Source of the DNA: an uncultured virus (IMG/VR IMGVR_UViG_3300028833_000011)
Lineage: Duplodnaviria > Heunggongvirae > Uroviricota > Caudoviricetes
IMG/VR virus record: IMGVR_UViG_3300028833_000011
Strand: one strand, 5' to 3'
DNA: 64,000 nt
The translations under genes and the position numbers were made by a program. Positions within the stretch are counted from its first letter, which is position 1; each line of letters opens with the position of its first letter. The notes beneath the pieces were generated by a model that ran no database searches, was not told where the DNA came from, and worked only from the letters and a program-made list of their open reading frames with translations. This document shows, in pieces, positions 1,822 to 62,636 of this stretch.

Positions 1822-3027
1822 ATGAACAAAGACAACGAAAACAAGATGCTTGGTCTATTGGACGAGGCTTTTGCCGACGGCGTTCAAAGTATGGTTCCCG
1901 CATTAAAGAAAGCGGAGGACAACGCCTACCAAAAAGGCCACGACGCGGGTTACGAGTTGGGGTATCGCACGGCGCTAAACGATGTGCAAGTAACGCCTAC
2001 GACCGAAGAACAAGAAGAGGGTAGTGGCATCCCGAAATGGAATATGGAAAGTTTGCCAACGCGCGCGTTTTTTGACTTGCTCACACCCGACGGCTACAAA
2101 GAAAGTGATTATAGCCTTATTTGGCCGTCGCTTGGTCAAACCGACATTGACGACGGGCATGCCGAAAGGAATTACCCGTATGTTGTTCACGGCAAAGGTG
2201 ACAAGTTGCTTGTTATGGGCGACGACGAACCCACACAAACCATCACGCCATATAAAGAGGCTTTCTTTATCTATTGCTTGGTGCCGAACAAGACGTATCG
2301 ATGGAAAATGATGCTCGGCGACAAAATCATCAAAGAGGGAGTGTTCCAAACCACAGGTCGTGTTCGTTGGATGAAAACAAACGTCAACAAATATCCCCAC
2401 AATATGCGCGACCTTGGTTGTCCAAAAGAATTTGTAACGGAGGGCAACGGCATTGTTTGGGAAAGATGCTATCGTGGTGAACATCCAGACAATATCGAGG
2501 TTGGTTCGGTTGACCATTTGTATCTCCGCGACCAACTTGGCATTTCGGTGCAAATAAACCTGCGCGATGCTGACGAAAACCCAGCACGTTCCGACCTTTT
2601 TGAAAAGACATATTCGTACAATATACCCGCTTACGCCGCCATCCTTACGGCAAACCAAACGTATAAAGGCAACTTCAAAAAGGCTTTTCATGCGCTTGTT
2701 ACCGAATTAAAGGCGGGACGTAACGTGCTTATCAATTGTTGGCAAGGCCGCGACCGCACTGGCACGTTCTGTTGGTTCTTGCAAGCGTTATGTCACATGG
2801 CCGCTGGTTATCTACAAGGCCATTGGGAATTGTCAACGTTCGATAGGTGTGAAAACTCTATGATTTGGGAAGAGGTGCATTCCGAAGGCAAATTACGCGA
2901 TATGGTTACGAAATTCAAGGCAAAGTGGGGTGCCAATCCATACGACCAAGCGATTGGGCTTGCAAAGTTTGTTGGCATCCCCGACACCGACATCAAGGAT
3001 TTCCAAGACGTTATGATGGCAAAATAG
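1822..3027 (+). CDS. tyrosine-phosphatase family protein (Y_phosphatase3/IphP-like)
   Basis: NMRDLG, YRG, NLR and CX5R P-loop NCWQGRDRTG. Confidence 0.8.
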   Translation: MNKDNENKMLGLLDEAFADGVQSMVPALKKAEDNAYQKGHDAGYELGYRTALNDVQVTPTTEEQEEGSGIPKWNMESLPTRAFFDLLTPDGYKESDYSLIWPSLGQTDIDDGHAERNYPYVVHGKGDKLLVMGDDEPTQTITPYKEAFFIYCLVPNKTYRWKMMLGDKIIKEGVFQTTGRVRWMKTNVNKYPHNMRDLGCPKEFVTEGNGIVWERCYRGEHPDNIEVGSVDHLYLRDQLGISVQINLRDADENPARSDLFEKTYSYNIPAYAAILTANQTYKGNFKKAFHALVTELKAGRNVLINCWQGRDRTGTFCWFLQALCHMAAGYLQGHWELSTFDRCENSMIWEEVHSEGKLRDMVTKFKAKWGANPYDQAIGLAKFVGIPDTDIKDFQDVMMAK

Positions 3028-3111
3028 TGGCATTCAAACATATAGTTGTCCATTTATAATTTATTTCATAAAATAGCACTAATTCAAATTATATACTATT
3101 CTATTCATTAA

Positions 3112-3151
3112 GCCGCAAGTGTTTGAAATTACAACGCTTGCGGCGTTTTTT
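3112..3151 (+). terminator. intrinsic terminator
   Basis: gccgcaagtgtt...aacgcttgcggc stem followed by a T-run. Confidence 0.7.
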
Positions 3152-3202
3152 ATGCCGAAGAACAAACGCAACTGGCAATAAGCAAGGACTTTCTAAAATA
3201 CA

Positions 3203-3249
3203 TTTTTCAAAATGCCATAAAATTCGTACTTTTGCACACGTAACGTTAC
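3203..3249 (+). promoter_or_regulatory. Bacteroidota sigma-A promoter with downstream palindrome
   Basis: TACTTTTG at 3227-3234 matches TAnnTTTG; perfect palindrome GTAACGTTAC at 3240-3249. Confidence 0.65.
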
Positions 3250-3294
3250 AAAGTGTGTTGTTAACAAGTATGTTTATTTTTCAAATCTAATTTT

Positions 3295-4131
3295 ATGGCA
3301 GAGATTTATCAACTCCCCGAGAATGGAAATGGAAACAACAACATCCCATTCTCTATTCCTATCGGCGGCAACGGGATGTTTGGCAACGGCCAGACGAACC
3401 TCATGGACTTGCTCGGCTTCGCAATCGTTGCAAGCATCTTCCCCAACTTCTTCGGCGGCGCAGGAGGTCGTGGCAATATGCCTAATGTCAACGCAGACCT
3501 CGCTATGCAAGCAATCGTCTCGCAAGGAGAGGCTTCTCGCACGGCTATCCAGACGCTCGCGTCAAGCATCGGGCAGGACTTCAACATCGTCTATGGCACA
3601 ATCGGCAACATTCAGAATGCGCTGTCGCAGATTGGCGCGACACAGGGCATGAATGCCTTGCAGGTCATCAATGCCATTCAGAATGGTAACGCAGGGCTCG
3701 CATCGCAGTTGTCGCAATGTTGCTGCAACAGCCAGCTCGCAATGTGTCAGCAGACCAACGCCCTCCAGTCGCAGGCCGACCGCAACCACAACGCTGTGCT
3801 CAACGCCATCAACGCTCAGACTATCGCCATGAACGACCAGTTCTGCGCCATCAAGGAACGCGAACTCCAATCCAAGATTGACACCCAAGCCGAAATCATC
3901 ACCCAATTGCGCGGACAGATTGACAACGCCAACCAGACCGCCGCTATTACGGGTTATGTCAACGGACTCGTTGCGCCATTGCAAAAGGCCGTCACCGAGA
4001 TTGCGGACAAGATGCCGAACACCATTCCCGTTCAGTGGCCGAATGTCACGGCCGTAAACACCACACCAAACGCGGGTGCATTCTACGGCGGTTTCGGATA
4101 TAACGGCTTTGGTGGCAACGTCGTATTCTAA
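3295..4131 (+). CDS. Gly/Asn/Gln-rich coiled-coil protein with SQCCC motif (cassette gene 1)
   Basis: 278 aa; hydrophobic segment LLGFAIVASIFPNFFG, LASQLSQCCC, long heptad region. Confidence 0.85.
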   Translation: MAEIYQLPENGNGNNNIPFSIPIGGNGMFGNGQTNLMDLLGFAIVASIFPNFFGGAGGRGNMPNVNADLAMQAIVSQGEASRTAIQTLASSIGQDFNIVYGTIGNIQNALSQIGATQGMNALQVINAIQNGNAGLASQLSQCCCNSQLAMCQQTNALQSQADRNHNAVLNAINAQTIAMNDQFCAIKERELQSKIDTQAEIITQLRGQIDNANQTAAITGYVNGLVAPLQKAVTEIADKMPNTIPVQWPNVTAVNTTPNAGAFYGGFGYNGFGGNVVF

Positions 4132-32297: not shown

Positions 32298-32450
32298 AGT
32301 CTTGTTGTTTTTTAAGTTGTTATTATATATATGTTGGTGTTAAATGTTTTCTAAATAAAGCCATATCCTACCTCGCGGCTGTATATGGCAACCTATGAAA
32401 TTAACCTTTTCTAACTTCTATTATTATTTACTATCTAACTCTAAAACTTG

Positions 32451-32521
32451 TTGCCCCACCGAGACTCGAACTCAGTCAAACAGAACCAAAATCTGGTGTG
32501 CTACCATTACACCATGGGGCA
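32451..32521 (-). tRNA. tRNA-Gln (anticodon TTG)
   Basis: TGCCCCA/TGGGGCA acceptor stem, GGTGTAATGGTAGCAC D-arm, loop TT-TTG-GT, GTTCGAGTC T-loop. CCA is not encoded (CAA follows). Confidence 0.9.
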
Positions 32522-37163: not shown

Positions 37164-37967
37164 TTATTTGTTCAACATTATTGCCTCGCGTATCGTGTGA
37201 ATATACGACGCAATTTTTACTTGTTTGGCACGATTATCCATGCCGTCAAAATCCCATTTTGCAAATAACGTGTGGTCGGCCATACCCTTGAAATCGCACA
37301 TCATTTCGGCAATGCGAATCGCCATGCCGTTTTTGGTGTTAATTTCGTTCCATGACCAAAGTTGAGGATTTTCTCCGCCGCACGCCGCAGGGAAAAGACG
37401 CTTAAATATTTTAAGCATCGTTTGCACGTCGCGTGAATCAATGTAACGGGCGTTTTTTGTGGCGCCACGTTTTGCCGATTCCTCTTTGCGCTGTTCTAAT
37501 GGTTTTGCGTCGAACGTTTCGCGCCATTTGTCGGACGCGCCGCCCGTCGTTTCGCCACGTTCCTTTTTCGCCGCCAAAGCCTTCTTGGTTCGGTCGCTTG
37601 TTAATTCGCGTTCGTATTGCGCGACGGCCGCGAACACACCTAAAAGCAACGTGTTCATTTGTGGCATGTCCACAAAATGAATCTCGATACCTGTGTTGAC
37701 GACCTTAAAGCAAAACTCTACGTCGCGTGCAAGTCGGTCAAGTTTGGCTATCACAAGCGCGCAATCATTCGCCTTGCAAAATGCAATAGCCGCCGCAAGC
37801 CCTTTGCGGTCGCGATGCGTTCCGCTTTCAACGTCGCAAAATTCCTCAGCCTTTTCGCCGCCGTTTGCCACGATGAAATCTTCACACATCTTTCGCTGCG
37901 CCTCCAAGCCAAGGCCGCTTGAACCCTGCTTGCGTGTCGATACCCTTATATAAATTGCGTATTTCAT
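37164..37967 (-). CDS. serine recombinase, resolvase/invertase family
   Basis: YIRVST catalytic Ser, DVESG...R, AKLDRLAR, AQYERE; no large-serine-integrase domains evident. Confidence 0.9.
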   Translation of the reverse strand: MKYAIYIRVSTRKQGSSGLGLEAQRKMCEDFIVANGGEKAEEFCDVESGTHRDRKGLAAAIAFCKANDCALVIAKLDRLARDVEFCFKVVNTGIEIHFVDMPQMNTLLLGVFAAVAQYERELTSDRTKKALAAKKERGETTGGASDKWRETFDAKPLEQRKEESAKRGATKNARYIDSRDVQTMLKIFKRLFPAACGGENPQLWSWNEINTKNGMAIRIAEMMCDFKGMADHTLFAKWDFDGMDNRAKQVKIASYIHTIREAIMLNK

Positions 37968-41591: not shown

Positions 41592-42094
41592 AATAAGCAA
41601 TATTTATTTAATTATATTTATTAATTAATTGTTATTGTGCGCGCGTCGCGCGTCGCGAATGCTTGCACCCGCATAGAATAGCGCCGCGACACCCGCACCG
41701 AATAAACCGAAAAACGTCGTGTCTAAAGCGATACGAAAGAAAACGCACGCGCACACTACTGCGGCGCACGCGTGCAACATACGACTAAAGCACTCCATTT
41801 GCGTCACGATTTTAGTCAATATAAAAATACTGACCGAACGTCGGCACGAATGCACCGCCGCATGGAAAGACGCCCATTTCGCGGCAATACGTTACAAAAG
41901 CGTCAACCATAGCGAAGGGGACGCACGTAATTCTCAAATTTGTCAATTCGTCAAAATAAGTAATCATAGTAAAACAAGAAATTAGAGTAAATAAATATGA
42001 TTGTTAGACGCCCGAAAAAACAGGGCAATTTGCGGCCGCGTCACGTTCCGCTCGTGAAACACCAGTAATAATTTGCGCGGCCTATCCTTAAAAA

Positions 42095-42719: not shown

Positions 42720-42747
42720 AGTTTTATATTATATAAATAGGTGTCTA

Positions 42748-42840
42748 AATTTGCATTTTAAGCCGCGCACAAAAGACGAACGACGCCCGAAAGTACAAAT
42801 ATATGTGCGCGGCGTCGTTCGTCGAATATAGGGTAAATTT
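42748..42840 (-). repeat. dispersed 93-bp element, copy D
   Basis: 18-nt identity GCGGCTTAAAATGCAAAT with copy B; internal 13-bp inverted repeat GACGAACGACGCC. Confidence 0.6.
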
Positions 42841-42871
42841 GGGCGCCGTTTTTGTGGCGCCCAGTCTTTTG

Positions 42872-43651: not shown

Positions 43652-43714
43652 TTTTTTATGCTTTTAATTTGTCGTTTGAATTATGTTGTTATATGACACG
43701 AATGAGGAGGCCGT

Positions 43715-45121
43715 TTACCAGACCTCCTCGTTTGTCATTTCATTAATGCACGCCTTCATGGCTTTTGCCCAGCGATTATTTTTGTCGTCGAGTTGTGCAT
43801 AAAGGTTCTGCACGTCGTCAACTTCCTTCTCTTGCAATACTGAGCCGCGAAGAAGATGCGCGTCGTCATTCAAGCACGCGGCCTGGAGTGTAGCGAGGTC
43901 TGCGGCCTGGCGATAACTAAACAACTGCGAAATACCTGCGCGGCGTGCTGCGCGGCGCAAATCGGCGCCGAAATTGACTATTTCCTCGTCACCGCCTGTT
44001 ATATCAAGCATGACCTCCCTATCGTATGTTACTACTTCAAAGAAAAATCTATTTTTGAAAGACGTGTCTTGCATCTGTCGCGCGGTGTATTCAATCGTCG
44101 CGCCAGTCATTCGCGTATTGCCAGCCGCGATAACGCGAAAGTTAGGATGAGCCTCGACATTGCCGATAACTGGGAAGTCGAAGCGCTTGTTTGCAATAGC
44201 GTTATTTAATACGACAAGAGCCTCGGGTGCCGAGGCGTCAACTTCGTCTAAGAAGAACACTCCGCCGTTAACGAATGCGCGATAAAAGGACGTCTCGACG
44301 AAACGCCCTGCGGCGTCGCCGTATCCTTTTAACTCGTGTGCAAACATGGCCTGGCTCGTTTCGTAATAGTCAAAACCGAGGGCCTCAGCAATTTGCTTTG
44401 CGGTGTATGATTTGCCGCAGCCCGCAGGTCCGTACATGTATAAAGGTTTGCCTGCCTGAACGAGATTGCAATAGATAGCGAAATTCTTCGCCGTTTTTCC
44501 GTTAACGACATTCACGCCCTGTGGTGATACAACTTCGAGCTTATTCGCTGGCTGTTGCGTGAGCGCCTCCTTTTCGGCATTAATTCGGGCGTTAACTTCG
44601 TCTATCATTCGCGCCATGAATTTCTTCTCGAGGCGTGCTTCGTCAATTCCTTCGGTGTCAGCATATTTGGCAGCGGCTTCGAAAATCTCGGCACCCATGA
44701 CGCCGTATTTTTCAAGAAGCTCGGCTTTTACCTTTTCGCGGTCTGTATAATACGAAAGCTCGGTCTTCGCAATTTCCAACTCACGCTCAAACGTTTCGGG
44801 CGTCGGAGTTGTTTCGACGACAACTGGCTCCTCGATAACGGCGGGCTCCTCGATAACAACTGACTCCTCGGCGGGCGTCGATACGCGGCGCTGGCGCTTC
44901 TTGTTTGTCACTTTGACTATCTCCCAGCCTTCGGCCAGCGTGAATGTTTCGACTCCGTTCTCGTCTGTGTTAAGAAGGCTGACCTGCGGCCAGTTACTAT
45001 AAAATCTGCTGTTTGCTTTGCCGCTATAATCGGCGCTGAACGAGCCGTCTTCGTTTGCGTGGAAATGATACATTTTCTTTTCTTCACCCGAGATGCTGTT
45101 TCTGATAATGATATTTGACAT
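43715..45121 (-). CDS. AAA+ ATPase, MoxR/CbbQ/CobS-like
   Basis: GPAGCGKS, FFLDEVDA, AHPNFRVIAAGNT, NRF. Confidence 0.9.
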   Translation of the reverse strand: MSNIIIRNSISGEEKKMYHFHANEDGSFSADYSGKANSRFYSNWPQVSLLNTDENGVETFTLAEGWEIVKVTNKKRQRRVSTPAEESVVIEEPAVIEEPVVVETTPTPETFERELEIAKTELSYYTDREKVKAELLEKYGVMGAEIFEAAAKYADTEGIDEARLEKKFMARMIDEVNARINAEKEALTQQPANKLEVVSPQGVNVVNGKTAKNFAIYCNLVQAGKPLYMYGPAGCGKSYTAKQIAEALGFDYYETSQAMFAHELKGYGDAAGRFVETSFYRAFVNGGVFFLDEVDASAPEALVVLNNAIANKRFDFPVIGNVEAHPNFRVIAAGNTRMTGATIEYTARQMQDTSFKNRFFFEVVTYDREVMLDITGGDEEIVNFGADLRRAARRAGISQLFSYRQAADLATLQAACLNDDAHLLRGSVLQEKEVDDVQNLYAQLDDKNNRWAKAMKACINEMTNEEVW

Positions 45122-45690
45122 ATCTTTACAATTTGCGCGAGTCTCACGCGCTGGCCTTCCTTTTCGGCCAAATAGATAAATAAATAATAATAGAAAAGTA
45201 ATAATATATTATATATATCGCGGCCTGATAGGGTCTCGCTCCCAGTCGTTTTCGTCGCCGATAATATCGGACATTTCAGGCCTCCGTTAACGCAGCCGAG
45301 GGCTCATGTGTCCCTCCGCCGCGTCTTTTAAGATAGGTTTTTTCGGCTGTGGCTCAAAAGCGGTGCCGTTTTGCCCGCTATCCTTTTGCCGCTTTCGCTA
45401 CATTCCACTCTGGCCGCGAGACTCTACATTTTGGGCGCTTCATGATATGCTGTGTTATAATCCAGACGACTCCACCGCCGAAACATGAAACATTCACCCG
45501 CTGGCCGCGTGTTTCGCTTTACACGCCCGCCGAAAATGGGCGCGTCAAATATAACCATTTTAACTACTTCTCCAGACGCCGTTCTTCGAAGTGACGTCTT
45601 TTTATTACAGGCACCGCCTCCTCGTGAGGCTGTTGTTTGCGCCGCAGGCCCTTTCGTTTTGGTTATCTATCAGCATGTCAAAGAACGATT
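45122..45690 (-). ncRNA. candidate long structured leader / ncRNA beginning with a boxA-like site
   Basis: GC-rich, hairpin-dense and without a credible ORF; GTTCTTTGACAT at 45675-45686. Confidence 0.5.
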
Positions 45691-45697
45691 TGCACTG

Positions 45698-45730
45698 CAA
45701 ATATACGAACATTATTTTATATATTGAAAA
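45698..45730 (-). promoter_or_regulatory. early promoter heading the leftward block
   Basis: TATATTTG -7 box at 45698-45705; -33 box imperfect. Confidence 0.65.
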
Positions 45731-46620
45731 TATGTTTAAGGTTTTTTAATATTTGGTATATTATTTTAATACTTGTTAACGCTTATTTTATTGTTTTGTA
45801 AAGTGTAGATTACAAAAAAATTCAATATGTAAAGAATATACAAAAAACGTGCATTTTTCGTGTATATCAAATATTTATACATTTTAGGCGTCTTTATATG
45901 CTTTATTTCTATATATACATATTATATAATATATATTATTCTTTATGTTATTATACATGTCTATTTATTATAAATGCTTTCTATGCTTTATAGTGGATAG
46001 ATAACACGCTTTTATTGCGTGCGTGTCGCTTTGTCGTTCTATGTCTTTATAACCTTTTATTTTGTCGGTTATTGTGTCTTTTGTCATAGACACCCGAAAA
46101 GACGTTTATTTTGCTTTATATCGCATTTTGTTGCATATAGTCATATATTTATATATATATTCGTGTCTATGTCTTTATATATCGAATATTATTGCAATAT
46201 ATTATAGAACATAGAAGAAATACTTATATATCGGTGATATTCGTTTTTATATTCCTTTTCTTTATTCGTGTCTATTCCTATTTATAACGCTTATTTCCTA
46301 AATTATAACCTTTTATAAAACATGTATATTTATATATATTTATTCATATTTATTTATTATGCTTATTATATGTTATTATCTTATTATTGCTTTATTATTA
46401 TTATATTGTTTCTATTATATTACTTTTATATTGCTTTATTATACTTCTATCTATTTATTATTGTCTTTATTATTATTATTGCTATATTATTATTCTTCTT
46501 TTATTGTTATTGTCTTTTTATTATTGTTTATATTATATTGCTTTATGCTTTTATTATATTACTTTTATATTACTTTATGCCTTTTCGTTTTTTCATTCGT
46601 TTGGAATGATGCAAAAAACG
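45720..46620. repeat. AT-rich low-complexity non-coding tract
   Basis: Degenerate TTA/TTG/TAT runs, strongly T-skewed on the plus strand. Confidence 0.8.
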
Positions 46621-46676
46621 GAGATTCTCGCGTGTTTTGGATAAAAGACGAACGTATAAGAAAACAAACAATTTAA

Positions 46677-46850
46677 AAAAACGTGCCGAAAACGTGCCGC
46701 GCGGCGTCTTTTCGCGCGTATGGCACGAAAAAAGAAGGGGGGGGGGGGACAATACACACTCCGCGAAATATAGGGGGTCTATCGTTTTTTCAGCTCGAGA
46801 AAAAAAATCGAAAAATTTTCTGAAAAAAATAAAATTTCGTGAAAAATTTG
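46677..46850. other. candidate genome-end / packaging signal
   Basis: AAAACGTGCCG twice (46677, 46689), inverted GGCACG, G12 run at 46737-46748, repeated A/T tracts. Confidence 0.4.
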
Positions 46851-46878
46851 GTCATATAAAAAAATATGTTTATCTTTG
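46847..46878 (+). promoter_or_regulatory. Bacteroidota sigma-A promoter
   Basis: TTTG-N20-TATCTTTG. Confidence 0.75.
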
Positions 46879-46886
46879 CGGCGTGA

Positions 46887-46978
46887 AAATTTGCGTTCTA
46901 ACGCGTTTTCTTTGTTTAGGTGTGTAATTTATCGTTTTTCGCATAAAAGTGGCTTAAATGCGGCTTAAAATGCAAATA
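46887..46978 (+). repeat. dispersed 92-bp element, copy B
   Basis: AAATTTGC-N31-AATTTATCG-N39-AAATA with imperfect dyad symmetry. Confidence 0.65.
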
Positions 46979-47004
46979 TGGGGCTTTAATTGGCATTATA
47001 TGGT

Positions 47005-47418
47005 ATGGCGTCGTTTAGTGTTATAGGGTTTATAGAAAGTATCAAGGTTTTGGACGGGTCGTGTTTGTTGGTATTAAGTGAATATCGCAAGGGTTACACT
47101 CGTTCTGATGGCATCAAGGTTCAAGACCGCTGGCTTACTTGGTCGATAATCTTCAAGTCGTACTTCAAGCGGTACTTGTTTGAACATTTCTCGCGTGGTA
47201 TGCTGGTAGAGGTAAAGGGTGAGGTTTTGCCTTATGTTGTAGAGCGCGGGGTTGAAAAGGACGGGGGCTATTCTGTCATAGGGCAGACGTGCAACCTGTT
47301 TAGTTATCCTCGGCAATCCGTGATGCACAAGGCGGAGGAACGGATGATACGTGATAGTCAACTTGGGGATGACGGGCGGTTGCCAGACCTTGACGGGTAT
47401 AACGAGCCAGACTTTTAG
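47005..47418 (+). CDS. SSB-like OB-fold protein with acidic tail
   Basis: FSVIGFI...W.IIF...RGMLVEVKGEV; ends DGYNEPDF. Confidence 0.65.
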   Translation: MASFSVIGFIESIKVLDGSCLLVLSEYRKGYTRSDGIKVQDRWLTWSIIFKSYFKRYLFEHFSRGMLVEVKGEVLPYVVERGVEKDGGYSVIGQTCNLFSYPRQSVMHKAEERMIRDSQLGDDGRLPDLDGYNEPDF

Positions 47419-47510
47419 GGGTCGGGTGTTGAAATAGTTACATTGTTGTTAATTGGTTATTATATATCGGGTGTGTGTTATTTGCTTTTATAGACGCATT
47501 CATTTATGAA

Positions 47511-47550
47511 AGACGGGGACATGTCGTGATGACACTCCCCGTTTCTTTTT
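47511..47550. terminator. bidirectional terminator between convergent genes
   Basis: agacgggga...tccccgttt stem flanked by A and T runs. Confidence 0.65.
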
Positions 47551-47586
47551 GTTTGTTTGTCTTTTCTCTCTATATATGCGTATATG

Positions 47587-48057
47587 CTACGATGGTGTTG
47601 TTGGCGCGTCGAGGGTATGTAGTGTGGCGGTTGCCAATATGCAACTGTTTCTCCCTCGTTGCAATTTTACCAACGTCGGCTTAACGCCTTTTAGACACAC
47701 TACGTGTGCGATTTTGTTGACGTATGACGACTTGATGTAGAAATCTCCGTCATCGGCCACATACTCTACGAAAGCGTCGTAAGCGGCTTGTGTGTTGAAC
47801 GTTGTCGGATTTGCGGCGTAACGTGATGCTACGGCAAACGACAGTTCGAGGTCGATGTTGGTTCGGACAATCTTGTTGTCGGTCAATAGGTAGTCCTCCT
47901 CTTGTTCGTTCACCCATTGTGCGGTATATACGTTTTGTGCTTCGCCTCTATCTTCGAACCCCGTTATAGCGGTGATTTTCACGCCGTCGAAACGTGTTGT
48001 CACGTCGAGCCATGCGTCTTGTGGTGTCTTGCGGATGAAATACTTGTTTCTAAGCAT
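47587..48057 (-). CDS. probable distal tail (Dit-like) protein
   Basis: 156 aa beta-rich protein two genes after the tape measure; positional inference. Confidence 0.45.
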   Translation of the reverse strand: MLRNKYFIRKTPQDAWLDVTTRFDGVKITAITGFEDRGEAQNVYTAQWVNEQEEDYLLTDNKIVRTNIDLELSFAVASRYAANPTTFNTQAAYDAFVEYVADDGDFYIKSSYVNKIAHVVCLKGVKPTLVKLQRGRNSCILATATLHTLDAPTTPS

Positions 48058-48680: not shown

Positions 48681-51600
48681 TTATCTTGTAAGTTCAACCA
48701 TAAACGCGCGTCCGCTTGGGTTAAGGGCGCCTTGTAGTGCCGATTGTATTGACATTTGTATAGCGTGCGTCGCTTGGAGTTGTGCAAGGATTTGCTGGTG
48801 TATTCCGTCCCGCATTTCGTCTTGCATTTCCCAAATGGCGTCGCGTATTTGCGTCAATAGTTCCGAATGCACGTATTGTTGTTGTGTGTTGGCGTTCCAA
48901 TATGCCTCCAACGCCGACGCTTGTTCCTCGGTGATGCCCTTGATGCCCGCTTGCAAGTCGCTAAGTTCGGTTTCCTTGTTGACGCTTTGCGACATGATGC
49001 CAAGCGATTCGAGGTTCTTGTAGAATGCGCCAAGTGCGTCGTTGATGTCCAAGCCCACCTCTTGTGCCAACCGCGCGATGGCCATAAGTTCGTTGGTCGT
49101 CAACGTCATGCCGCCCGCCGATGCCTCTTGCGTGTATTGGTCAACCATGTCGTAAAGGGGTTGCAATAGGTTGCCGACGATTTTGGATGTGATGGCCTTT
49201 TTGATGATGTTTTGCGTTATCTCGTCCATCTTTTCCTCTATCTTGTCAAGCGTTGTTTCGCCCTCGCGCCACGCCTCTACCCACGTATCTACGAAAGATT
49301 CTGCGGCCGACTTTATATCCTCACCGAACAACGAACTTGTAACCTCCTCAATCATGTTTTGGAGTTCGATTTCGGCGTCGGCGATTTGTGAACGCAGGTC
49401 AATAACCTTGTCCTCGTCGTATTTCTTGCCCGTTCGCGATTGCTCAAGCATAAGTTGTCGCCGCAATTCGGTGAGTTGCAGTTGCTTGTTGGCTACGGCG
49501 GCGCGTCTTGCGCTTGTTTCGGCGTCACCCATCGCCTTGTTGATGGTGTTTTGCAACCTCTTGTAGGCGATTTCCAAGTTTTTCACCGCCCTTTCGCTTT
49601 CTTCGATTTGCTTGGTGATTTTCCTGTCTTTCCTATTGGAAATAAAGTTGAATACGCCGTAAATCGCGCTAAGTGCGGCCGAGATAGCCAAAAGCCATAC
49701 GTTAGAGGCCTTTAGTGCCTCCAACGCCACGCCTACGGCAACGATGATTGGAATAAGCATCTTAAAGCCCTTGGTGATGTCGTCGATGGCGTCGGCCGTT
49801 TCGTTGTCGCCGAACTCGCGGAATATGTCGCTTATTGACGAAAAGACTTGTTCGGCCGATTGCAGGGACTTGGCCGTTGCATCTACGCTGCTAATAACCT
49901 TGGCTTGCGCCTTGGTGACGGCGTTTTCGGCGTCGGCCACGTTGATTTCGGCCTTGGCTTGGCGCTTTTTCGCCTCCGTAAGGTTGTTTGTGGCCTTGGC
50001 AACCTCGTTTGGTGACGCATCCTCGGTAAGCCTGTTAAGTTCGATTTCGGCGTTGATGACGGCCTTGTTGGCAATGTCAAGTTGCTTGCGGTTGTATGCC
50101 AACGTTTCGCTTGCGTCCGACCATTCCTTGATGCCGCTGATGATACCCGCGAAAGGATTGCGTTTTACGCGCATCTTTTCGGCATCCTCGAGGGCTTGCA
50201 TCAACGCTTTCATCGATGCTGGGTCTTCCTTGACGTGTTCCTTTAGTTCGTTAAGACGCTCGATGATGCGGTCAATCGTGTTTGTGGACACGTTTTCGAG
50301 GTTTTCAAACGTCTTGGCGTAAAGGTCGCTATCCTTGAACGACTCCCACCATACCTTGCTTATGCCTTGCTCTTGTTCCTTGTTCGTCGCATCCAACGCT
50401 TGCATTGCAATAGGCTTTCCCTTGGTGACTTTTTCAAGTATCTTGGCTAATTCGTCTTGCAAGCGGGTGATTTCGGACGGGTCTTGCGACAACTTGATTT
50501 TGCTTGTAAGGTCAAGTGCCTTCCCCACGTCCTCGTCCTCGCCGAAACGACGGACGATTGTGAGTTGTTGTTCGGCGTTGTCCTTGTAAATCTTCATCAT
50601 CTTGGCTTGGATGTCGCCGTACTTTTCGACAAGTTTCGACCATTCCTCGATTTGTGACTTGCTTTCTTTAAGTCTTAGGTCGCTTGCATACTTGCGTATC
50701 TTGTCAAGCGCCTTCACGAAATTGTCGTCAAGCAAATGGCCGTTTTGTTCCACCCACTCTTTGAACTTGTCGGCATTAAGCGAATCTACAAGGTTGAATG
50801 TTTCGCTTATGTTAGCGTCTTTCAATACCTTGTCGATGCCTTTTTGTAGGCGTGCTACGACTTGGTTGTAGGTGCGCGGCAAGTCGCGAACGTCGTCGTC
50901 GGAAAGACCCATCATCTCCTTAAACACCTCGCCCATTTCGGGTGTTGCATCCATATCTACGGCCAATTCGTACTCGCTCTTTAACTTGTCAAGTTCGGAA
51001 TTAAGGCCGTCCACGACGCGCTTGTAGTCAATCTTGGTAATTTCGACGTTGATGTTTGCCAATGACTTTTCAAGCGTTTCGATACCCTTGGCGTTGTTAA
51101 GGCGTTTTGCCGATTCGAGCAACTCGGTGTAGTAGTCGCGCAAATCGCGCAAATCCATCTTGGCAATGTCATTCGTTGACTTGGTTGTCACGCCCAACTT
51201 GCGCAAAGTTGCGTTGTTGCGCGTCAACGTATTGCTATATTCTTGCGTTGCCTTGTTCAACGCGTCTTGGCCGTTTACGCCCATGTCGCGATATTCCTTG
51301 TAACGCTTGCGCATAGCATCGATGGCTTGCGATATGTTGGCAAAGGCCTCGCCTGCGATGTCCCTTTGCTTGTTGCCTTTCTTTTCCTCCTCGGCCGATT
51401 GGCCAAAAAGTTTAAGAAGTTCGGTGCGTTGGGCAATTTCGTCATCGTTTAGCTTTTGTTGCTGTTTTGACCAATCGCTTTGGTCTTTTGCAAGACGCTT
51501 GTTTTCGGCTTTGAGGTTTTTGATGGCCTTTTGTTGAGTATCAATCCAAGACATGAAATCGTCCTTTTGGGTCGGCAGCATGGACGGGTTGCCGAAATCA

Positions 51601-54545
51601 ATGGTTTTTGGTGCCTCTTCGATTCGTTTGTTGACCTCTTTTTGGAATTCGGTCAATTGGTTAACGTTGAATGTCAAGCCAATACGAATCTTAAGTTCAC
51701 TTGCATCCTGAACCATTTGCTTTACCGCGTCGTAGTATTGCGGCATGGACTTTTGGAAATCCGCGAGCGTTTCCTCAATTGCCTCGTTTTGCTTTTCGGT
51801 CAATTGATAGGTGTCGTCGTAGATTTTGTCGGTGATGTCGCTGAATGCCGACGCCCTACGGCGCAATCTTGTCGTAAACTCGTCCCACAACGATTCGTTG
51901 GCCGAAATAGCGCCGTTTGTCAACTCGCTAAGTTTCTTGTCAAGTTCGATGTCGAAAATGTTGCCAAGTTCACCGCTAAGTTTCGGGTTTTGAATCTTGA
52001 TTTGCGCCCTTGCACGTTCAAGAATTTCGCGCATTTGCAACGGGTCGGTGATGTGATACAAGTCCATAAAGTTCTTGATGCTATTCGCAGTAACGTCTAT
52101 TTCGGAAGACATTTCGTCGTAAGCGGCCTTTATATTGTTGTAATTGCCCGATTTTCCGTCGTCGTTTAGCATAAAGCGCAACGTTTCGTATGTGCCAGTA
52201 AAGTCGTCAAGGGCGTCCTTGTAGTCCTTTATGTCATCGACAAGTCCCTCACCGAATATGCCGAACGTACCCATCGTCTGCGACACCTTTATAAAGTCGT
52301 CGCCCATCTTTGCCATAACACCCTCTACGTCGCGAATACGTGTTGCGTAATCAAAGCCAAGCGATACGCGTTGGTTGATGTCGTCAATTTTGACAAGTTC
52401 GGCCAAAAGCGAATTTGCCGACGCCGACGATGCTAAAAGTTCGTCCGAAAGTGATTCCCACGCCTTTGCACCTTGCGATGCCGTAAGTTTCATTTCCCTT
52501 GCGAGGTCGCGCGTCGCCACGTTACCCTTGTTGTTGAAGAACTTTTGTAGTGAATCGGCGCTTTCGGTTGCGGCCTTGCGGATGTTGTTGTTAAGTTCCT
52601 CGGTAGCCTCGCTTGCTTGGTAGAATGAGTATGCGAGGTCAATTGCGGCGCCAACGACGGCAAATACCCATGTCCAAGGGTTAGCGGCCATAGCCTTCAA
52701 GCCACCAAGCAACTTGGAAACCGCCGCGCCAAGTTTGACGCCTATCCAATCCATTTGCGTTGCTGTGGATTGTGCGGCCTTTGCCCATTTCAATTGTAGG
52801 GCTACGGCGGCAACTTGTAAAAGTTTGACGGCGCCCATGGTGAACACAACCGCTTTGACGGCATGGTCGATAGAACGCCACCCCTCGAACAACGACTTTA
52901 AGAAACGTATTGGTGCCGTCAACAATGATTGGTTGCTTTTGCCAATATCGTTAAGCGCGTTGTTCCACGCCAACGAAAGATTGGCCATTTGAACTTTTAG
53001 CGTCTGCGCTTGCTTTGCTTGAAAGTCAAAGAATTTACCACCCTCGTCGGTAAGTTCGTTCAGAACGGCCATTACGTCGCTATACGACACCATTTTCTTT
53101 GACATACGCGAATATACCTCACCCGTGCTAACCACGCGCCCTTCAAGTTCGCTAAAATGGTCGGCAAGCGATTTGACGATAGGCAAGCCCGCGTTGGCAA
53201 AGTCGCGTGCGTCACGTGCCGTAAGAACTGTTTGTGCGCGAATCTGACCGAGGTTGTACGTAAGACGTTCCATAGGCACGCCAAGCGCCGCACTTAGGTC
53301 GGCCAAACGGCGTGTCGTGTCTACAACCTCGTTGGCGGCAAAGTTGTATGCCGTCAATTGTTTTGCGGCGCCGCCAAGTTCCATAAGCGTGAACGGCGAT
53401 TTCAAGGCCATTTCGCTTAATTCGGCAAACACTTGACTACCACGTTCGAAAGAACCGACAAGGACACCAAGCGAGCGTTCCAAAAGTTCGTATTGCGCGC
53501 GAACCTCATACACTTGCTTAACAAAACTTGTCAAAGCGCCAAGTGTCAAGGCATAGACGATACGATTGCGGATATAGCCGAACGATTGCGCAAGATAATT
53601 GTTCGAATGCGTAAGTTGAACGTTGCGGCCAAGCAATTCGGCTTGTAAGCGCGAAAGTCGTTGGTATTCGCTGCTTATCTTGCTTACATCTTGCGCGTGT
53701 GTTCCGCTTGTGGGGTCGCTGATAACCTTTTTCAGTGCTTTCATCTTGTCGGCAACCTCTTGAACCGAACGTTCGGGCATCTTCAATACATCTGCCAAAG
53801 TAACTGGGTTGTTCGACAACTTGCGTTTAAGCGTATCTATCTTGCTTGTCGTCCTATCGATGGCTTGTTGTACGCGATTAAGCTGAACCTCGTCAAAAAT
53901 ACCCTTGTCGCGCATATCTTGTTGAACCTTTTGAAGACGAGCAAGTTTGTCGTATGCGTCGGAAAGGGATTTTGTTGACATGGAATTTGCCGCATTGAAT
54001 TCCTTTAACAACGGTGATTGGCTTTTCTTTGTTTCGCGTTCGGTGCGTTTGCGTTCGTATTCCTCGAGTTGCGCTTGCGTCATCAATTGGGTTTTAAGCC
54101 TTTCTTGTTGCTTTGCAAGTTCCTCGTTTTGCGTCTTTAGTTCGTCCGATTCAAGTTTCATCGCGTCGCGACGTTGGTTTTCGGCCGCAATGATTTTCTT
54201 TAGTTCGCCGACAGTTTCGGGCTCGGTCGTGCTACCCGTTCCAGTTCCCGAACCAGCACCGCCACCGCCGCCTGTTCCCGAACCTGCGCCCGACGTAGCC
54301 ATAGCCTTTGCAAGCCCCGACATGGATGTAGAGATGCGCGTTATCACCTCTTCCGTCTGCTTGGCTTGTAAGTCTAATGACCCGTTAAAGCCTTGCAAGA
54401 TGCTGACGACGTTTTGCAGATTCCTGTCAAAAGCATCCGTCATGCCCCTTAGTCGCGCATCAACCTCATTAACCATCCTATCTATATTGGATAGTAGTTC
54501 GGAATCGTCAAGATGCCCGACAATGATTGTAGGATTTTCAGCCAT
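48681..54545 (-). CDS. tail tape measure protein
   Basis: 1954 aa, helical; tape-measure core (SPFTLMELGGAAKQL...LGQIRAQ...FANAGLPI). Confidence 0.92.
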   Translation of the reverse strand: MAENPTIIVGHLDDSELLSNIDRMVNEVDARLRGMTDAFDRNLQNVVSILQGFNGSLDLQAKQTEEVITRISTSMSGLAKAMATSGAGSGTGGGGGAGSGTGTGSTTEPETVGELKKIIAAENQRRDAMKLESDELKTQNEELAKQQERLKTQLMTQAQLEEYERKRTERETKKSQSPLLKEFNAANSMSTKSLSDAYDKLARLQKVQQDMRDKGIFDEVQLNRVQQAIDRTTSKIDTLKRKLSNNPVTLADVLKMPERSVQEVADKMKALKKVISDPTSGTHAQDVSKISSEYQRLSRLQAELLGRNVQLTHSNNYLAQSFGYIRNRIVYALTLGALTSFVKQVYEVRAQYELLERSLGVLVGSFERGSQVFAELSEMALKSPFTLMELGGAAKQLTAYNFAANEVVDTTRRLADLSAALGVPMERLTYNLGQIRAQTVLTARDARDFANAGLPIVKSLADHFSELEGRVVSTGEVYSRMSKKMVSYSDVMAVLNELTDEGGKFFDFQAKQAQTLKVQMANLSLAWNNALNDIGKSNQSLLTAPIRFLKSLFEGWRSIDHAVKAVVFTMGAVKLLQVAAVALQLKWAKAAQSTATQMDWIGVKLGAAVSKLLGGLKAMAANPWTWVFAVVGAAIDLAYSFYQASEATEELNNNIRKAATESADSLQKFFNNKGNVATRDLAREMKLTASQGAKAWESLSDELLASSASANSLLAELVKIDDINQRVSLGFDYATRIRDVEGVMAKMGDDFIKVSQTMGTFGIFGEGLVDDIKDYKDALDDFTGTYETLRFMLNDDGKSGNYNNIKAAYDEMSSEIDVTANSIKNFMDLYHITDPLQMREILERARAQIKIQNPKLSGELGNIFDIELDKKLSELTNGAISANESLWDEFTTRLRRRASAFSDITDKIYDDTYQLTEKQNEAIEETLADFQKSMPQYYDAVKQMVQDASELKIRIGLTFNVNQLTEFQKEVNKRIEEAPKTIDFGNPSMLPTQKDDFMSWIDTQQKAIKNLKAENKRLAKDQSDWSKQQQKLNDDEIAQRTELLKLFGQSAEEEKKGNKQRDIAGEAFANISQAIDAMRKRYKEYRDMGVNGQDALNKATQEYSNTLTRNNATLRKLGVTTKSTNDIAKMDLRDLRDYYTELLESAKRLNNAKGIETLEKSLANINVEITKIDYKRVVDGLNSELDKLKSEYELAVDMDATPEMGEVFKEMMGLSDDDVRDLPRTYNQVVARLQKGIDKVLKDANISETFNLVDSLNADKFKEWVEQNGHLLDDNFVKALDKIRKYASDLRLKESKSQIEEWSKLVEKYGDIQAKMMKIYKDNAEQQLTIVRRFGEDEDVGKALDLTSKIKLSQDPSEITRLQDELAKILEKVTKGKPIAMQALDATNKEQEQGISKVWWESFKDSDLYAKTFENLENVSTNTIDRIIERLNELKEHVKEDPASMKALMQALEDAEKMRVKRNPFAGIISGIKEWSDASETLAYNRKQLDIANKAVINAEIELNRLTEDASPNEVAKATNNLTEAKKRQAKAEINVADAENAVTKAQAKVISSVDATAKSLQSAEQVFSSISDIFREFGDNETADAIDDITKGFKMLIPIIVAVGVALEALKASNVWLLAISAALSAIYGVFNFISNRKDRKITKQIEESERAVKNLEIAYKRLQNTINKAMGDAETSARRAAVANKQLQLTELRRQLMLEQSRTGKKYDEDKVIDLRSQIADAEIELQNMIEEVTSSLFGEDIKSAAESFVDTWVEAWREGETTLDKIEEKMDEITQNIIKKAITSKIVGNLLQPLYDMVDQYTQEASAGGMTLTTNELMAIARLAQEVGLDINDALGAFYKNLESLGIMSQSVNKETELSDLQAGIKGITEEQASALEAYWNANTQQQYVHSELLTQIRDAIWEMQDEMRDGIHQQILAQLQATHAIQMSIQSALQGALNPSGRAFMVELTR

Positions 54546-60676: not shown

Positions 60677-60720
60677 AGTTTTCTACTATAAAAATTGTAA
60701 TTTTGGTTGTAAATTTGTTG

Positions 60721-60841
60721 CAAATATAGATAGATATTATATAAAAATTGCATAATTATTGGTTTTTTATTAGTTTTTGCGCGTATAATTAAAAATTCCA
60801 TTTTATTTTTCAAATCTACAAGCAAAAAATCTATATATTTG
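60721..60841. promoter_or_regulatory. divergent promoters for the head/tail operon and terminase-portal operon
   Basis: TATATTTG on the minus strand at 60721-60728 and on the plus strand at 60834-60841. Confidence 0.6.
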
Positions 60842-60863: not shown

Positions 60864-62636
60864 ATGGCTCGAAAGAAGAATGACATAGTTCTATCTCCAT
60901 TGGAGGATGGCAACCAAAAGTTTGCTATTCGGTCGAACGCCGATATTGTGGCGATGACTGGGGCGACTGGAGGTGGCAAATCCTATGCCTTATATTACGC
61001 ACCTATCGAATACCTTATGAACGACAACGCAAAAGTTGTTTGTTTTATGCGCAATATTAGCGACTTTTGGGGCGCGGGCAAAGTAAGTGATACATTAAAG
61101 CAAATGTACCCGTTGATTGATAGAAGCGTAAAGCGTCAACCACATGACCCAATAGGCGAAATCATCCGAAATCAAGCCGACATGGGTATGAAACTTTACA
61201 ACGGCGGTGAAATAAAGTTTCAGCAATTGGACAACGAAAGCCCAATCGTCATAGACAAAATCGCAAAGGGCTTGCAAGCAAAGAAACTTATCTTTGAGGA
61301 ATGCAACAAGTTTTCTTGGCGCACAATAACATCGTTTTTCCCGCGTTTGCGTAGCGATTCAAAGGGAAAGGCGCAAATTTTCTTGGCACAAAACCCCGAA
61401 CGCGAATGTTTTTTGCGCAAACTTTGCGGGAAGGGCGAACATGGCGGCGGCTGGATAAACGATGACGGCACCATCGACAAGTCTATGGATGGTGTGGTAA
61501 TGTTTTTCAACATGCAAGAGGGCGACCTTGACAAGACATACTTTGGCCGCACAAAACTCGAGGTATACCAAAAGTGCAAAGACCATATTGATTCGCTTAT
61601 CGCACAAGACCCAGATATGACATACGAGGACTTTATCTTGTCTATGGTCTTTTATTCATTTAGTGTTCGCGACAACAAAAAAATGCTTGCAAAAAACAAG
61701 CGTTATAGGGGGCTTGCCGCAAATTCGGCGACGGCGCAGTCGTCTTATTCGGAAAACTGGAATTATTCGCTCAATGACGAAGATAGCGAGTCTGACGAAC
61801 TCGACGGCGAGGTGTCGCAAATCGACATTGAGCGGATGTTCCGACCTATGGCAATCCCCCATGATAGTGTATGCGAAAAGCGCTTTATGACTATGGATAT
61901 GGCGTCAACGGGTTTTGACAACCTTATATTCATGTATTGGGAAAAATGGTCACATTTCGGCTTTATATGCAAAGACATTGAATATTCGATGGACAACACG
62001 AATAGAGAGGCCGTTATAATGGCTATGCGTTTTCGCGACAAGCATAACCTACAAGAAAAAGATATGCTTGTGGATGTCCAAGGTTTCGGATTTTTGCGTG
62101 ATTGCTTTCCACGTTCTATGCAAATTAGCGGCGCCGAATCTGCATCGAATAGGGGAAAGACATCGTTCAAGACACGAAAAGACGAGGCGGGACACGTTGC
62201 TATGGAAATGATAAAAAGCGGCTTGGTTCATTTTGACCCAAGTTTGGCGCAAATGAAATACAACCACAAGAATATGCGCCGTAGCGGCGGCACGACGATA
62301 CTTAAACATCTTGTCTTTGAAAGCCGAATTTTCCAATTTGCAAAGACGCCAAACGGGAGGATAACGATGATGGCGAAAGAGCAAATGAAAACCATGCTTA
62401 AAGGTATGTCACCCGACCTTACCGACAACATCATTCTTTTGTGTAGCGGAATGGTTTATGATTGTTACCGAATGTTGCGCGACGACGCTGGCATATCAAG
62501 GCAACGCGCGGAATCGTCAGACATGCTTGCTTTCCTTAATGTCGATAGCGAATACGAACAAGAGGACACAAGGCTTAAAAAGGTTAAAAAAATACGTAAC
62601 GCAAATGAAATATTAAATGTTTTAAGTGCTATATGA
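60864..62636 (+). CDS. terL: terminase large subunit
   Basis: Walker A GATGGGKS, Walker B LIFEE, AQNP coupling motif, nuclease MTMDMASTGFD...SPDLTD. Confidence 0.9.
   Translation: MARKKNDIVLSPLEDGNQKFAIRSNADIVAMTGATGGGKSYALYYAPIEYLMNDNAKVVCFMRNISDFWGAGKVSDTLKQMYPLIDRSVKRQPHDPIGEIIRNQADMGMKLYNGGEIKFQQLDNESPIVIDKIAKGLQAKKLIFEECNKFSWRTITSFFPRLRSDSKGKAQIFLAQNPERECFLRKLCGKGEHGGGWINDDGTIDKSMDGVVMFFNMQEGDLDKTYFGRTKLEVYQKCKDHIDSLIAQDPDMTYEDFILSMVFYSFSVRDNKKMLAKNKRYRGLAANSATAQSSYSENWNYSLNDEDSESDELDGEVSQIDIERMFRPMAIPHDSVCEKRFMTMDMASTGFDNLIFMYWEKWSHFGFICKDIEYSMDNTNREAVIMAMRFRDKHNLQEKDMLVDVQGFGFLRDCFPRSMQISGAESASNRGKTSFKTRKDEAGHVAMEMIKSGLVHFDPSLAQMKYNHKNMRRSGGTTILKHLVFESRIFQFAKTPNGRITMMAKEQMKTMLKGMSPDLTDNIILLCSGMVYDCYRMLRDDAGISRQRAESSDMLAFLNVDSEYEQEDTRLKKVKKIRNANEILNVLSAI

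Follow-up and report, generated by a model that had tools for sequence, protein, structure and literature searches.

Processive antitermination through boxA is textbook knowledge for the rRNA (rrn) operons of E. coli and for phage lambda, where it depends on the N protein. The boxA RNA recruits NusB/S10 and, with NusA, NusG and SuhB, gives RNA polymerase resistance to Rho. The boxA of lambda is a weakened form, and without an N protein from the phage, boxA/Nus complexes counter chiefly Rho-dependent termination and act poorly on intrinsic terminators. In Bacteroides, the capsule operons have long 5' leaders that are served by the NusG-like protein UpxY in another kind of processive antitermination. 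Baniulyte et al. (2017, PMC5725501) describe folding as the main role of the Nus complex at rRNA, with boxA also regulating non-rRNA genes in a phylogenetically widespread manner, and leave it to context whether a boxA/Nus complex blocks or helps Rho.

The locus considered here lies in a stretch of 64,000 nucleotides from an uncultured virus (IMG/VR IMGVR_UViG_3300028833_000011), to which we refer in its entirety as the window. The window is a tailed-phage contig, with genes for a tape-measure protein (48681-54545, minus strand), the large terminase (60864-62636), an SPP1-type portal (from 62633 onward) and a serine recombinase (37164-37967). TAnnTTTG boxes are grouped in its intergenic gaps, for example at 60698-60841 and 42746-42841, and 56 of the 59 listed gene starts have A-rich upstream sequence and no Shine-Dalgarno site. 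Promoter boxes and translation starts of this kind are Bacteroidota traits, and because of them we take the host to be of Bacteroidota type; the source would be a gut phage of such bacteria. A sigma-70 promoter scan of the window was set aside as not meaningful for a host of this type.

Minus-strand ORFs continue from 45121 to about 6306, beginning with a gene for an AAA+ ATPase (AAA_5, MoxR/CobS-like; 43715..45121; PF07728 at 2.4e-16 and phrog_249 at 9.1e-46). The initial annotation had placed a structured leader at the head of this co-oriented block of 39 kb. This stands as a description of gene orientation only; there are -7-box motifs on the minus strand within the block (e.g. 42803-42796) and a strong terminator-like hairpin at 41744..41776 on the minus strand (13 pairs, 8 of them G-C, then TTTTCTTT). 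The latter is the strongest sense-strand hairpin of its kind in the early block, and between 26000 and 45800 there are 38 terminator-like sites, compared with 24.0 +/- 4.7 in shuffles. The early/middle block also includes a phage-borne tRNA-Gln gene (anticodon TTG; 32450-32521, minus strand).

Upstream of the ATPase gene, a Bacteroidota-type -7 box, TATATTTG, is situated at 45698..45705 on the minus strand, with GCA next to it as in rrn promoters (TAccTTTGCA). Exactly 11 nt downstream on the same strand is the 12-mer GTTCTTTGACAT (45686-45675), which includes the core GTTCTTTGA (45686-45678) and is itself part of a boxA-like 20-mer, CGTTCTTTGACATGCTGATA (45668..45687). The arrangement is as first annotated, and the reading of this word as an rRNA-type boxA agrees with 71 Bacteroidales 16S leaders, with copies in rrn leaders and spacers and with one related phage, as described below. 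Taken by themselves the two motifs are at chance level, with one match to a relaxed boxA pattern in the window against 0.89 expected, and 70 matches to TAnnTTTG against 69.6 expected. The exact 9-mer GTTCTTTGA occurs twice, in the leader boxA and within a gene at 55975-55967, and of 3000 Markov-shuffled windows, 69 contain a -7 box with the exact core no more than 60 nt downstream of it (p about 0.023). There is no boxB-like hairpin between the promoter and the boxA of the window, unlike in two related phages (L001 and L013), and the 40 nt downstream of the boxA hold only a 3-bp GCC/GGC stem.

For comparison with the host clade, genome_contigs was scanned with a published Bacteroidales 16S primer, which yielded 71 usable regions upstream of 16S genes. 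The core GTTCTTTGA occurs 59 times in these leaders, downstream of TAccTTTGCA, most commonly in the form GTTCTTTGAAAG (29), and the core variants GTTCTTTGACAA/GACAG occur six times (GACAA 4, GACAG 2); the phage word therefore falls within the natural range of host-clade boxA. The sequence TACCTTTGCA is present in 50 of 72 fetched 16S leader stretches and GTTCTTTGAA in 49 of 72. Agreement extends beyond the core, as the phage 20-mer is identical at 18 of 20 positions to a true 16S leader (L168, with five listed copies in genome G043) and at 17 of 20 to the spacer after tRNA-Ala (L170 and L171, with five listed copies per genome), and is thus two to three changes away from each of these; with other intergenic sites of the host-type family included, the range is zero to three changes. 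The spacing is less similar. In the Bacteroidales rrn leaders boxA is most commonly 43-47 nt from the -7 box and the 15 commonest spacing classes are all at least 27 nt, whereas the phage has 11 nt with no hairpin between.

The 20-mer was also searched for, as CGTYCTTTGACATRCTGATA, in 401 genomes of one Prevotella-containing family. At up to two mismatches it is found in 75 of the 401 genomes and its reversed control in about 68, so that this level of matching is near chance. Among the listed places, 4 have no mismatch and 20 have one mismatch, and as random matches are calculated to be about 25 times rarer at one mismatch than at two, only the class with zero or one mismatch is clearly enriched. 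BLAST of the leader against the same genomes gave 28 short matches and no homologue of the leader body: 6 are at the promoter/boxA end (one of them a 21-nt exact match), 4 are scattered, and 18 fall in an AT-rich spacer between the leader body and the gene (45176..45230, minus strand, evident from sequence and GC profile), which marks that spacer as low in complexity.

Many of the non-rrn copies of the 20-mer in the host-family genomes are situated 60-130 nt upstream of a -7 box and not downstream of it, which leaves room for a role of the boxA-like word at the DNA level. An extended form of the word, CGTTCTTTGACATACTGA[TG]A, recurs at non-rrn intergenic sites (L164, L182, L185, L187, L142, L136, L190 and L191), often with caaGACGAAAG or caaacggatat next to it. 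Toxin-antitoxin genes (PIN and Zeta) are among the genes nearby, as are those for the S subunit of a type I restriction system accompanied by an HTH protein, for a nuclease of the YhcG kind, and for KilA-N and ThiF. At L164 two extended copies are 1232 nt apart with a small cassette between them, and one genome (G316) has 18 copies. A Prevotella-type chromosome (L134; G003:C1:1976341-1979361) has, 20 nt downstream of TAATATTTGCA, 21 nt identical to the phage boxA with its flanks; the site is in an intergenic gap of 578 nt and adjoins a repeat of about 120 nt, and neither of the two ORFs that border the gap has a Pfam match. The extended word may mark accessory or mobile cassettes. We regard as improbable the broader proposition that phages and mobile cassettes of Prevotella-type Bacteroidota routinely use the rrn boxA with its CTGATA-type extension, placed at the start of their transcripts, to pass foreign RNA off as rRNA and so evade Rho silencing, combined here with a functional orphan early ncRNA of ~450 nt.

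Related phages were collected by way of the ATPase (55-88% identity), giving 4 loci from viral_contigs and 9 from metagenome_contigs, one of which (L005) is the window's own contig; a scan of genome_contigs with the ATPase gave no prophage relative. L001 has TACTTTTGCA, a hairpin (ACGG...CCGT) and then, 43 nt on, at 2013, the identical 12-mer GTTCTTTGACAT. In L013, TACCTTTGCA is followed by the hairpin seen in L001 and, 43 nt on, by GGTCTTTGA, and L002/L007 have GCTCTTTCGAAAGA and GTTCTTTCA; the boxA of L013 and that of L002 each differ from the 9-nt core at a single position. The same type of promoter is found in L003/L010 and L004/L011, whose leaders contain no boxA even when one mismatch is allowed, and L009 has no recognisable promoter. 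Where upstream sequence and a recognisable promoter allow the comparison, all five lineages (L001, L002, L003, L004 and L013) have early leaders of 700-930 nt free of any ORF of at least 60 aa, and a long untranslated early leader is therefore a trait of the group.

The sequences of these leaders are another matter. They are not homologous to the leader of the window and the surroundings of the promoters cannot be aligned; blastn, nhmmer and tblastx of the window leader against the 12 related loci gave no homologue. Three exact leader 20-mers in viral_contigs led to no homologue of the body, and the INPHARED phage collection held no match to the leader. One candidate from a translated scan of viral_contigs (L159) proved by blastn to be a chance match, and a search with the hairpin pattern AAACGGAG..GGCCGTTT returned, among its 12 matches, only the two known relatives. 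When words from the whole region 43700-47600 were sampled, 24 sequencing runs shared some of them: three runs, marked as possible sources of this DNA, contain 98-99% of the words, and 21 runs, including three metatranscriptomes, contain 6-19%. These shares are for the region as a whole. The leaders of L002 and L013 are homologous to each other. The relatives also differ from the window in having an ORF between leader and ATPase (L001 2673-3254, L002 2997-3554, L013 962-1531, L004 3312-3764), which is missing in the window.

Two of these loci have features of their own. In L013 a Pistol self-cleaving ribozyme (RF02679; 57.8 bits, gathering score 34.5) is located at 1553-1629 on the plus strand, in the interval that separates the ATPase gene from the first of the early ORFs; Rfam gave no Pistol match in the window. 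L004 is the closest full-length relative (ATPase 83% identical) and has a window-like layout at 2470-3311, where DNA of 11-20% GC is followed by TATCTTTGC and then by about 840 nt of purine-rich, ORF-free sequence in which GNRA-like loops are numerous. This leader has neither a boxA nor sequence similarity to that of the window.

From the boxA to the ATG of the ATPase gene (45121) is about 555 nt, most of it taken up by an ORF-free leader body (45231..45667, minus strand) of about 50% GC, which contains the annotated hairpins. The stretch had been annotated as GC-rich and ORF-poor, and it is both: GC is 0.45-0.54 in 150-nt windows across 45175-45699, compared with 0.12-0.31 in the AT-rich DNA at 45625-46600, and no ORF up to the ATG is longer than 81 aa in antisense or 44 aa in sense. 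Inside the body there is another -7-like box (45553-45546, minus strand), weaker than the first. Beyond the AT-rich spacer are two short hairpins (GGCC-loop-GGCC and GCGCG-loop-CGCGC; 45135..45170, minus strand), seen in the sequence and in the minimum-energy fold, which end 13 nt before the start codon. There is one possible small ORF of 21 codons, MSDIIGDENDWERDPIRPRYI (45209..45274, minus strand), with a codon score of +0.225 and GGAGG (45285-45281) six bases upstream; strong Shine-Dalgarno sites are rare in this phage, at 3 of 59 listed gene starts.

The leader shows no sign of being a protein-coding gene in its open frames, its codon usage or its relatives. Codon log-odds, for which 23 long ORFs from the window served as training set, were scored in 150-nt windows and are 0.26-0.74 over the ATPase gene and -0.79 to +0.05 in the six frames of 45250-45700. 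Every frame has stop codons of all three kinds and the codon scan reveals no coding patches; readings of the stretch as recoded or as a pseudogene were rejected. Three antisense ORFs gave no match in Pfam or PHROG, tblastx against the relatives gave a best E of 0.14, and a comparison of the 80 aa of a stop-free stretch in sense with 5.8 billion protein clusters gave no homologue. Two of the antisense ORFs match one record and no other, P0002, a protein of 113 aa encoded on a contig of 1182 nt; it has 28 residues identical to one frame of the window and then continues in a second frame and in a third, at 91% identity. The variant of the leader is known through this protein record alone, from which eight single changes in the DNA can be deduced, together with an indel of +1 nt near 45441 and, at 45462-45466, a replacement of +4 nt. 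As the indels shift the frame in so close a variant, no ORF is conserved across that part on either strand. Codon scores, homologue searches and the P0002 frame shifts together give no coding signal, and the view that 45122-45697 is non-coding, the 21-codon ORF aside, is supported by the sequence comparisons.

A non-coding stretch need not be a functional one. It could be spacer or decayed DNA at the place where the relatives have a gene of 150-190 aa, and the boxA word could be fortuitous or a site acting at the DNA level, for example for a regulator. The missing ORF is what one would expect from this, as are the orphan state of the leader body, its tolerance of indels in the close variant, its local folding at chance level (see below), a GC content and purine bias that resemble neighbouring coding DNA, and the expectation of 0.89 relaxed boxA matches per window. 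However, residual coding signal is absent in every frame, and the tblastx comparison with the relatives' ORFs finds nothing better than the E of 0.14 given above. The coincidence of promoter and core is itself infrequent in shuffled windows, L001 has the identical 12-mer behind an early promoter, and agreement with rrn sequences over 20 nt argues against chance. On balance we think it unlikely that the stretch is without function of its own.

Whether the leader forms a structured RNA, as the initial annotation held, depends on the scale at which folding is considered. All six hairpins that it listed are present in the sequence and in the minimum-energy fold. The whole leader (576 nt) folds at -187.8 kcal/mol, with z = -2.98 and 1 of 100 shuffles as good, and the antisense strand has z = -1.80. 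In 160-nt windows, by contrast, z ranges from +1.07 to -2.63, which is no better than shuffles and no different from the neighbouring gene. A 9-bp closing helix between leader and trailer, GAUAGAUAA with UUAUCUAUU, was rejected as 144 of 500 shuffles do equally well, and closing helices in the leaders of L001, L002 and L013 are likewise not significant against shuffles. The Rfam search proposed earlier matched no family to the leader body, EAR, ROOL, GOLLD, riboswitches and ribozymes included; at gathering scores the tRNA is the only match in the window to the 4227 families of Rfam 15, and at E up to 10 there are two chance-level matches in 44900-47700, both outside the body. The eight substitutions deduced from P0002, a single natural variant, are mixed: three are at positions 81-100% unpaired, two keep a G-U (one at a weak pair), two would break pairs and one is ambiguous. 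We would describe the body as a non-coding RNA whose predicted structure is modest at best; the reading of the leader as a structured RNA, or as a new large phage ncRNA, is weakly supported.

These observations bear on a further possibility, that the body (about 45231-45667) is a stable, rRNA-like ncRNA, made from a host promoter with boxA serving its synthesis and folding, and then processed. We consider this doubtful, and equally doubtful its corollary that the ATPase message is a by-product or is separately controlled. The body is indeed a non-coding, GC-rich island amid DNA of 12-30% GC, its whole-leader fold is better in sense than in antisense, and four of the eight variant substitutions are at positions at least 57% unpaired, with two more keeping G-U. 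The leaders of L002 and L013, which are not homologous to it, give a two-sequence consensus of 96 predicted pairs, none of them broken, of which 7 have changes on both sides and 7 on a single side. Nevertheless, a stable RNA of this kind is at odds with local folding like that of shuffles, a 5'-3' closing helix that is not significant, the lack of an Rfam family and of any homologue of the body in the 401 host-family genomes, the relatives' loci or viral_contigs (three exact 20-mers and one translated scan), the absence of a terminator 3' of the body, and a base composition that is coding-strand-like.

The strongest local folding in this part of the window is found outside the leader, upstream of its promoter in AT-rich sequence (45881-46200; z = -2.7 to -4.2 on both strands). 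At the same place there are repeats around GTGTCTATG, both inverted and direct, for example at 46158-46190 and 46263-46295. These repeats look like operator or origin-type DNA sites. Further along the divergent control region, a GC-rich island (46600-46800) has a run of 12 G (46737-46748). This run precedes a -7 box on the plus strand (46871-46878) and an ORF of 142 aa (46990-47418), the latter conserved in L003. At 46940-46975 there are repeats of the word GGCTTAAA(A/T)G (ggcttaaatgcggcttaaaatgc), which are shared with the control region of L002 (about 1215-1250) and may be iterons or a repressor site.

We propose that the -7 box and boxA form a host-mimicking module that recruits Nus factors, so that RNA polymerase crosses the long untranslated leader and the early genes, a reading for and against which we find the evidence about evenly balanced. 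Equally balanced, in our judgement, is whether the element is the 5' end of an early transcription unit built like the start of a host rrn operon. With transcription starting a few bases past the -7 box, the transcript would carry boxA at roughly +7 to +18. As it emerges from the polymerase, this boxA would bind host NusB/S10, and with NusA, NusG and SuhB would modify RNA polymerase as in rrn operons, such that it would not be stopped by Rho across ribosome-free RNA and would carry this resistance into the early genes. The untranslated RNA to be passed is about 570 nt, and an RNA of ~560 nt without ribosome cover would be the kind of transcript that needs boxA protection; the excess of terminator-like sites in the block and the long ORF-free leaders of the relatives likewise speak for a need of antitermination. 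By analogy with rRNA, as described in PMC5725501, the Nus complex may also aid folding of the leader. In this way the phage probably borrows the antitermination machinery of its host. Against the model are the 11-nt spacing, the lack of boxA in L003/L010 and L004/L011, and the change of three bases just 3' of the boxA core in P0002.

The opposite outcome is conceivable, in that the Nus complex at boxA could loop the leader so that ATPase translation drops and Rho terminates, as at E. coli suhB, where PMC5725501 describes a boxA in the 5' UTR that represses translation and promotes Rho termination. The hairpins just upstream of the ATPase start codon would suit such an arrangement. However, the distance from boxA to start codon is far greater than at suhB, and the leader RNA is G-rich, not C-rich (A 134, G 133, C 102, U 81), and is therefore a poor substrate for Rho loading. 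We consider repression of this kind very unlikely, and with it the idea that early gene output is tied to the level of free Nus factors.

In the literature searched, part of which gave only irrelevant matches, we found no paper on boxA in Bacteroidota phages. The present locus is of interest because a phage of this type seems to use the unmodified host rrn signal right behind a host-type promoter and without a recognisable phage cofactor, and because in L001, L013 and L002 a boxA is likewise found in front of comparably long untranslated leaders. If true, the antitermination model would give a handle on early transcription in gut and rumen phages whose hosts have little-studied Rho/Nus biology, a sequence rule (-7 box plus GTTCTTTGA) for locating phage early promoters, and a hint that boxA may serve foreign DNA quite generally as a means of evading Rho silencing. 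The boxA half of the original proposal is on good comparative ground; the half that concerns a large structured ncRNA is weakly supported.

Among the known systems, the suhB gene of E. coli is similar to the phage locus in having a host boxA in the untranslated leader of a protein-coding unit, although translation repression and Rho termination operate there over a short distance (Baniulyte et al. 2017, PMC5725501), as opposed to a leader of about 555 nt in the phage. The HK022 put and EAR RNAs resemble what we propose in that an RNA at the head of a long operon makes the polymerase resistant to termination, but they act by their own fold and without boxA, whereas the phage leader has no Rfam match at E up to 10. 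The Bacteroides capsule operons with UpxY share with the phage the long untranslated leaders of Bacteroidota, but depend on a dedicated NusG paralogue and a locus-specific leader sequence and do not use boxA.

In lambda, nutL and nutR are similar to the phage element in placing boxA near the 5' end of the early transcript of a long operon with terminators. However, nut sites comprise boxB and are used with the N protein, whereas the phage has no hairpin of the boxB type after its boxA, nor did a scan of 24 neighbouring ORFs bring up an antiterminator family or an N-like protein, such proteins being hard to recognise. The boxA of the window is therefore not a nut site of the lambda type, and in place of lambda's weakened boxA it has the full rrn-type core of a Bacteroidota-type host. 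The closest correspondence is with the rrn leaders of Bacteroidales, which have the TAnnTTTGCA -7 box, the core GTTCTTTGA and a long untranslated RNA next, and of which one (L168) has an extension, GTTCTTTGACATATTGATA, that the phage boxA extension resembles. What follows is different, namely rRNA in the rrn operons and, in the phage, an orphan 560-nt leader without a significant leader-trailer helix and then protein genes. Notwithstanding these differences, the comparison of sequences suggests that the phage module works like an rrn leader and not like a lambda nut site.
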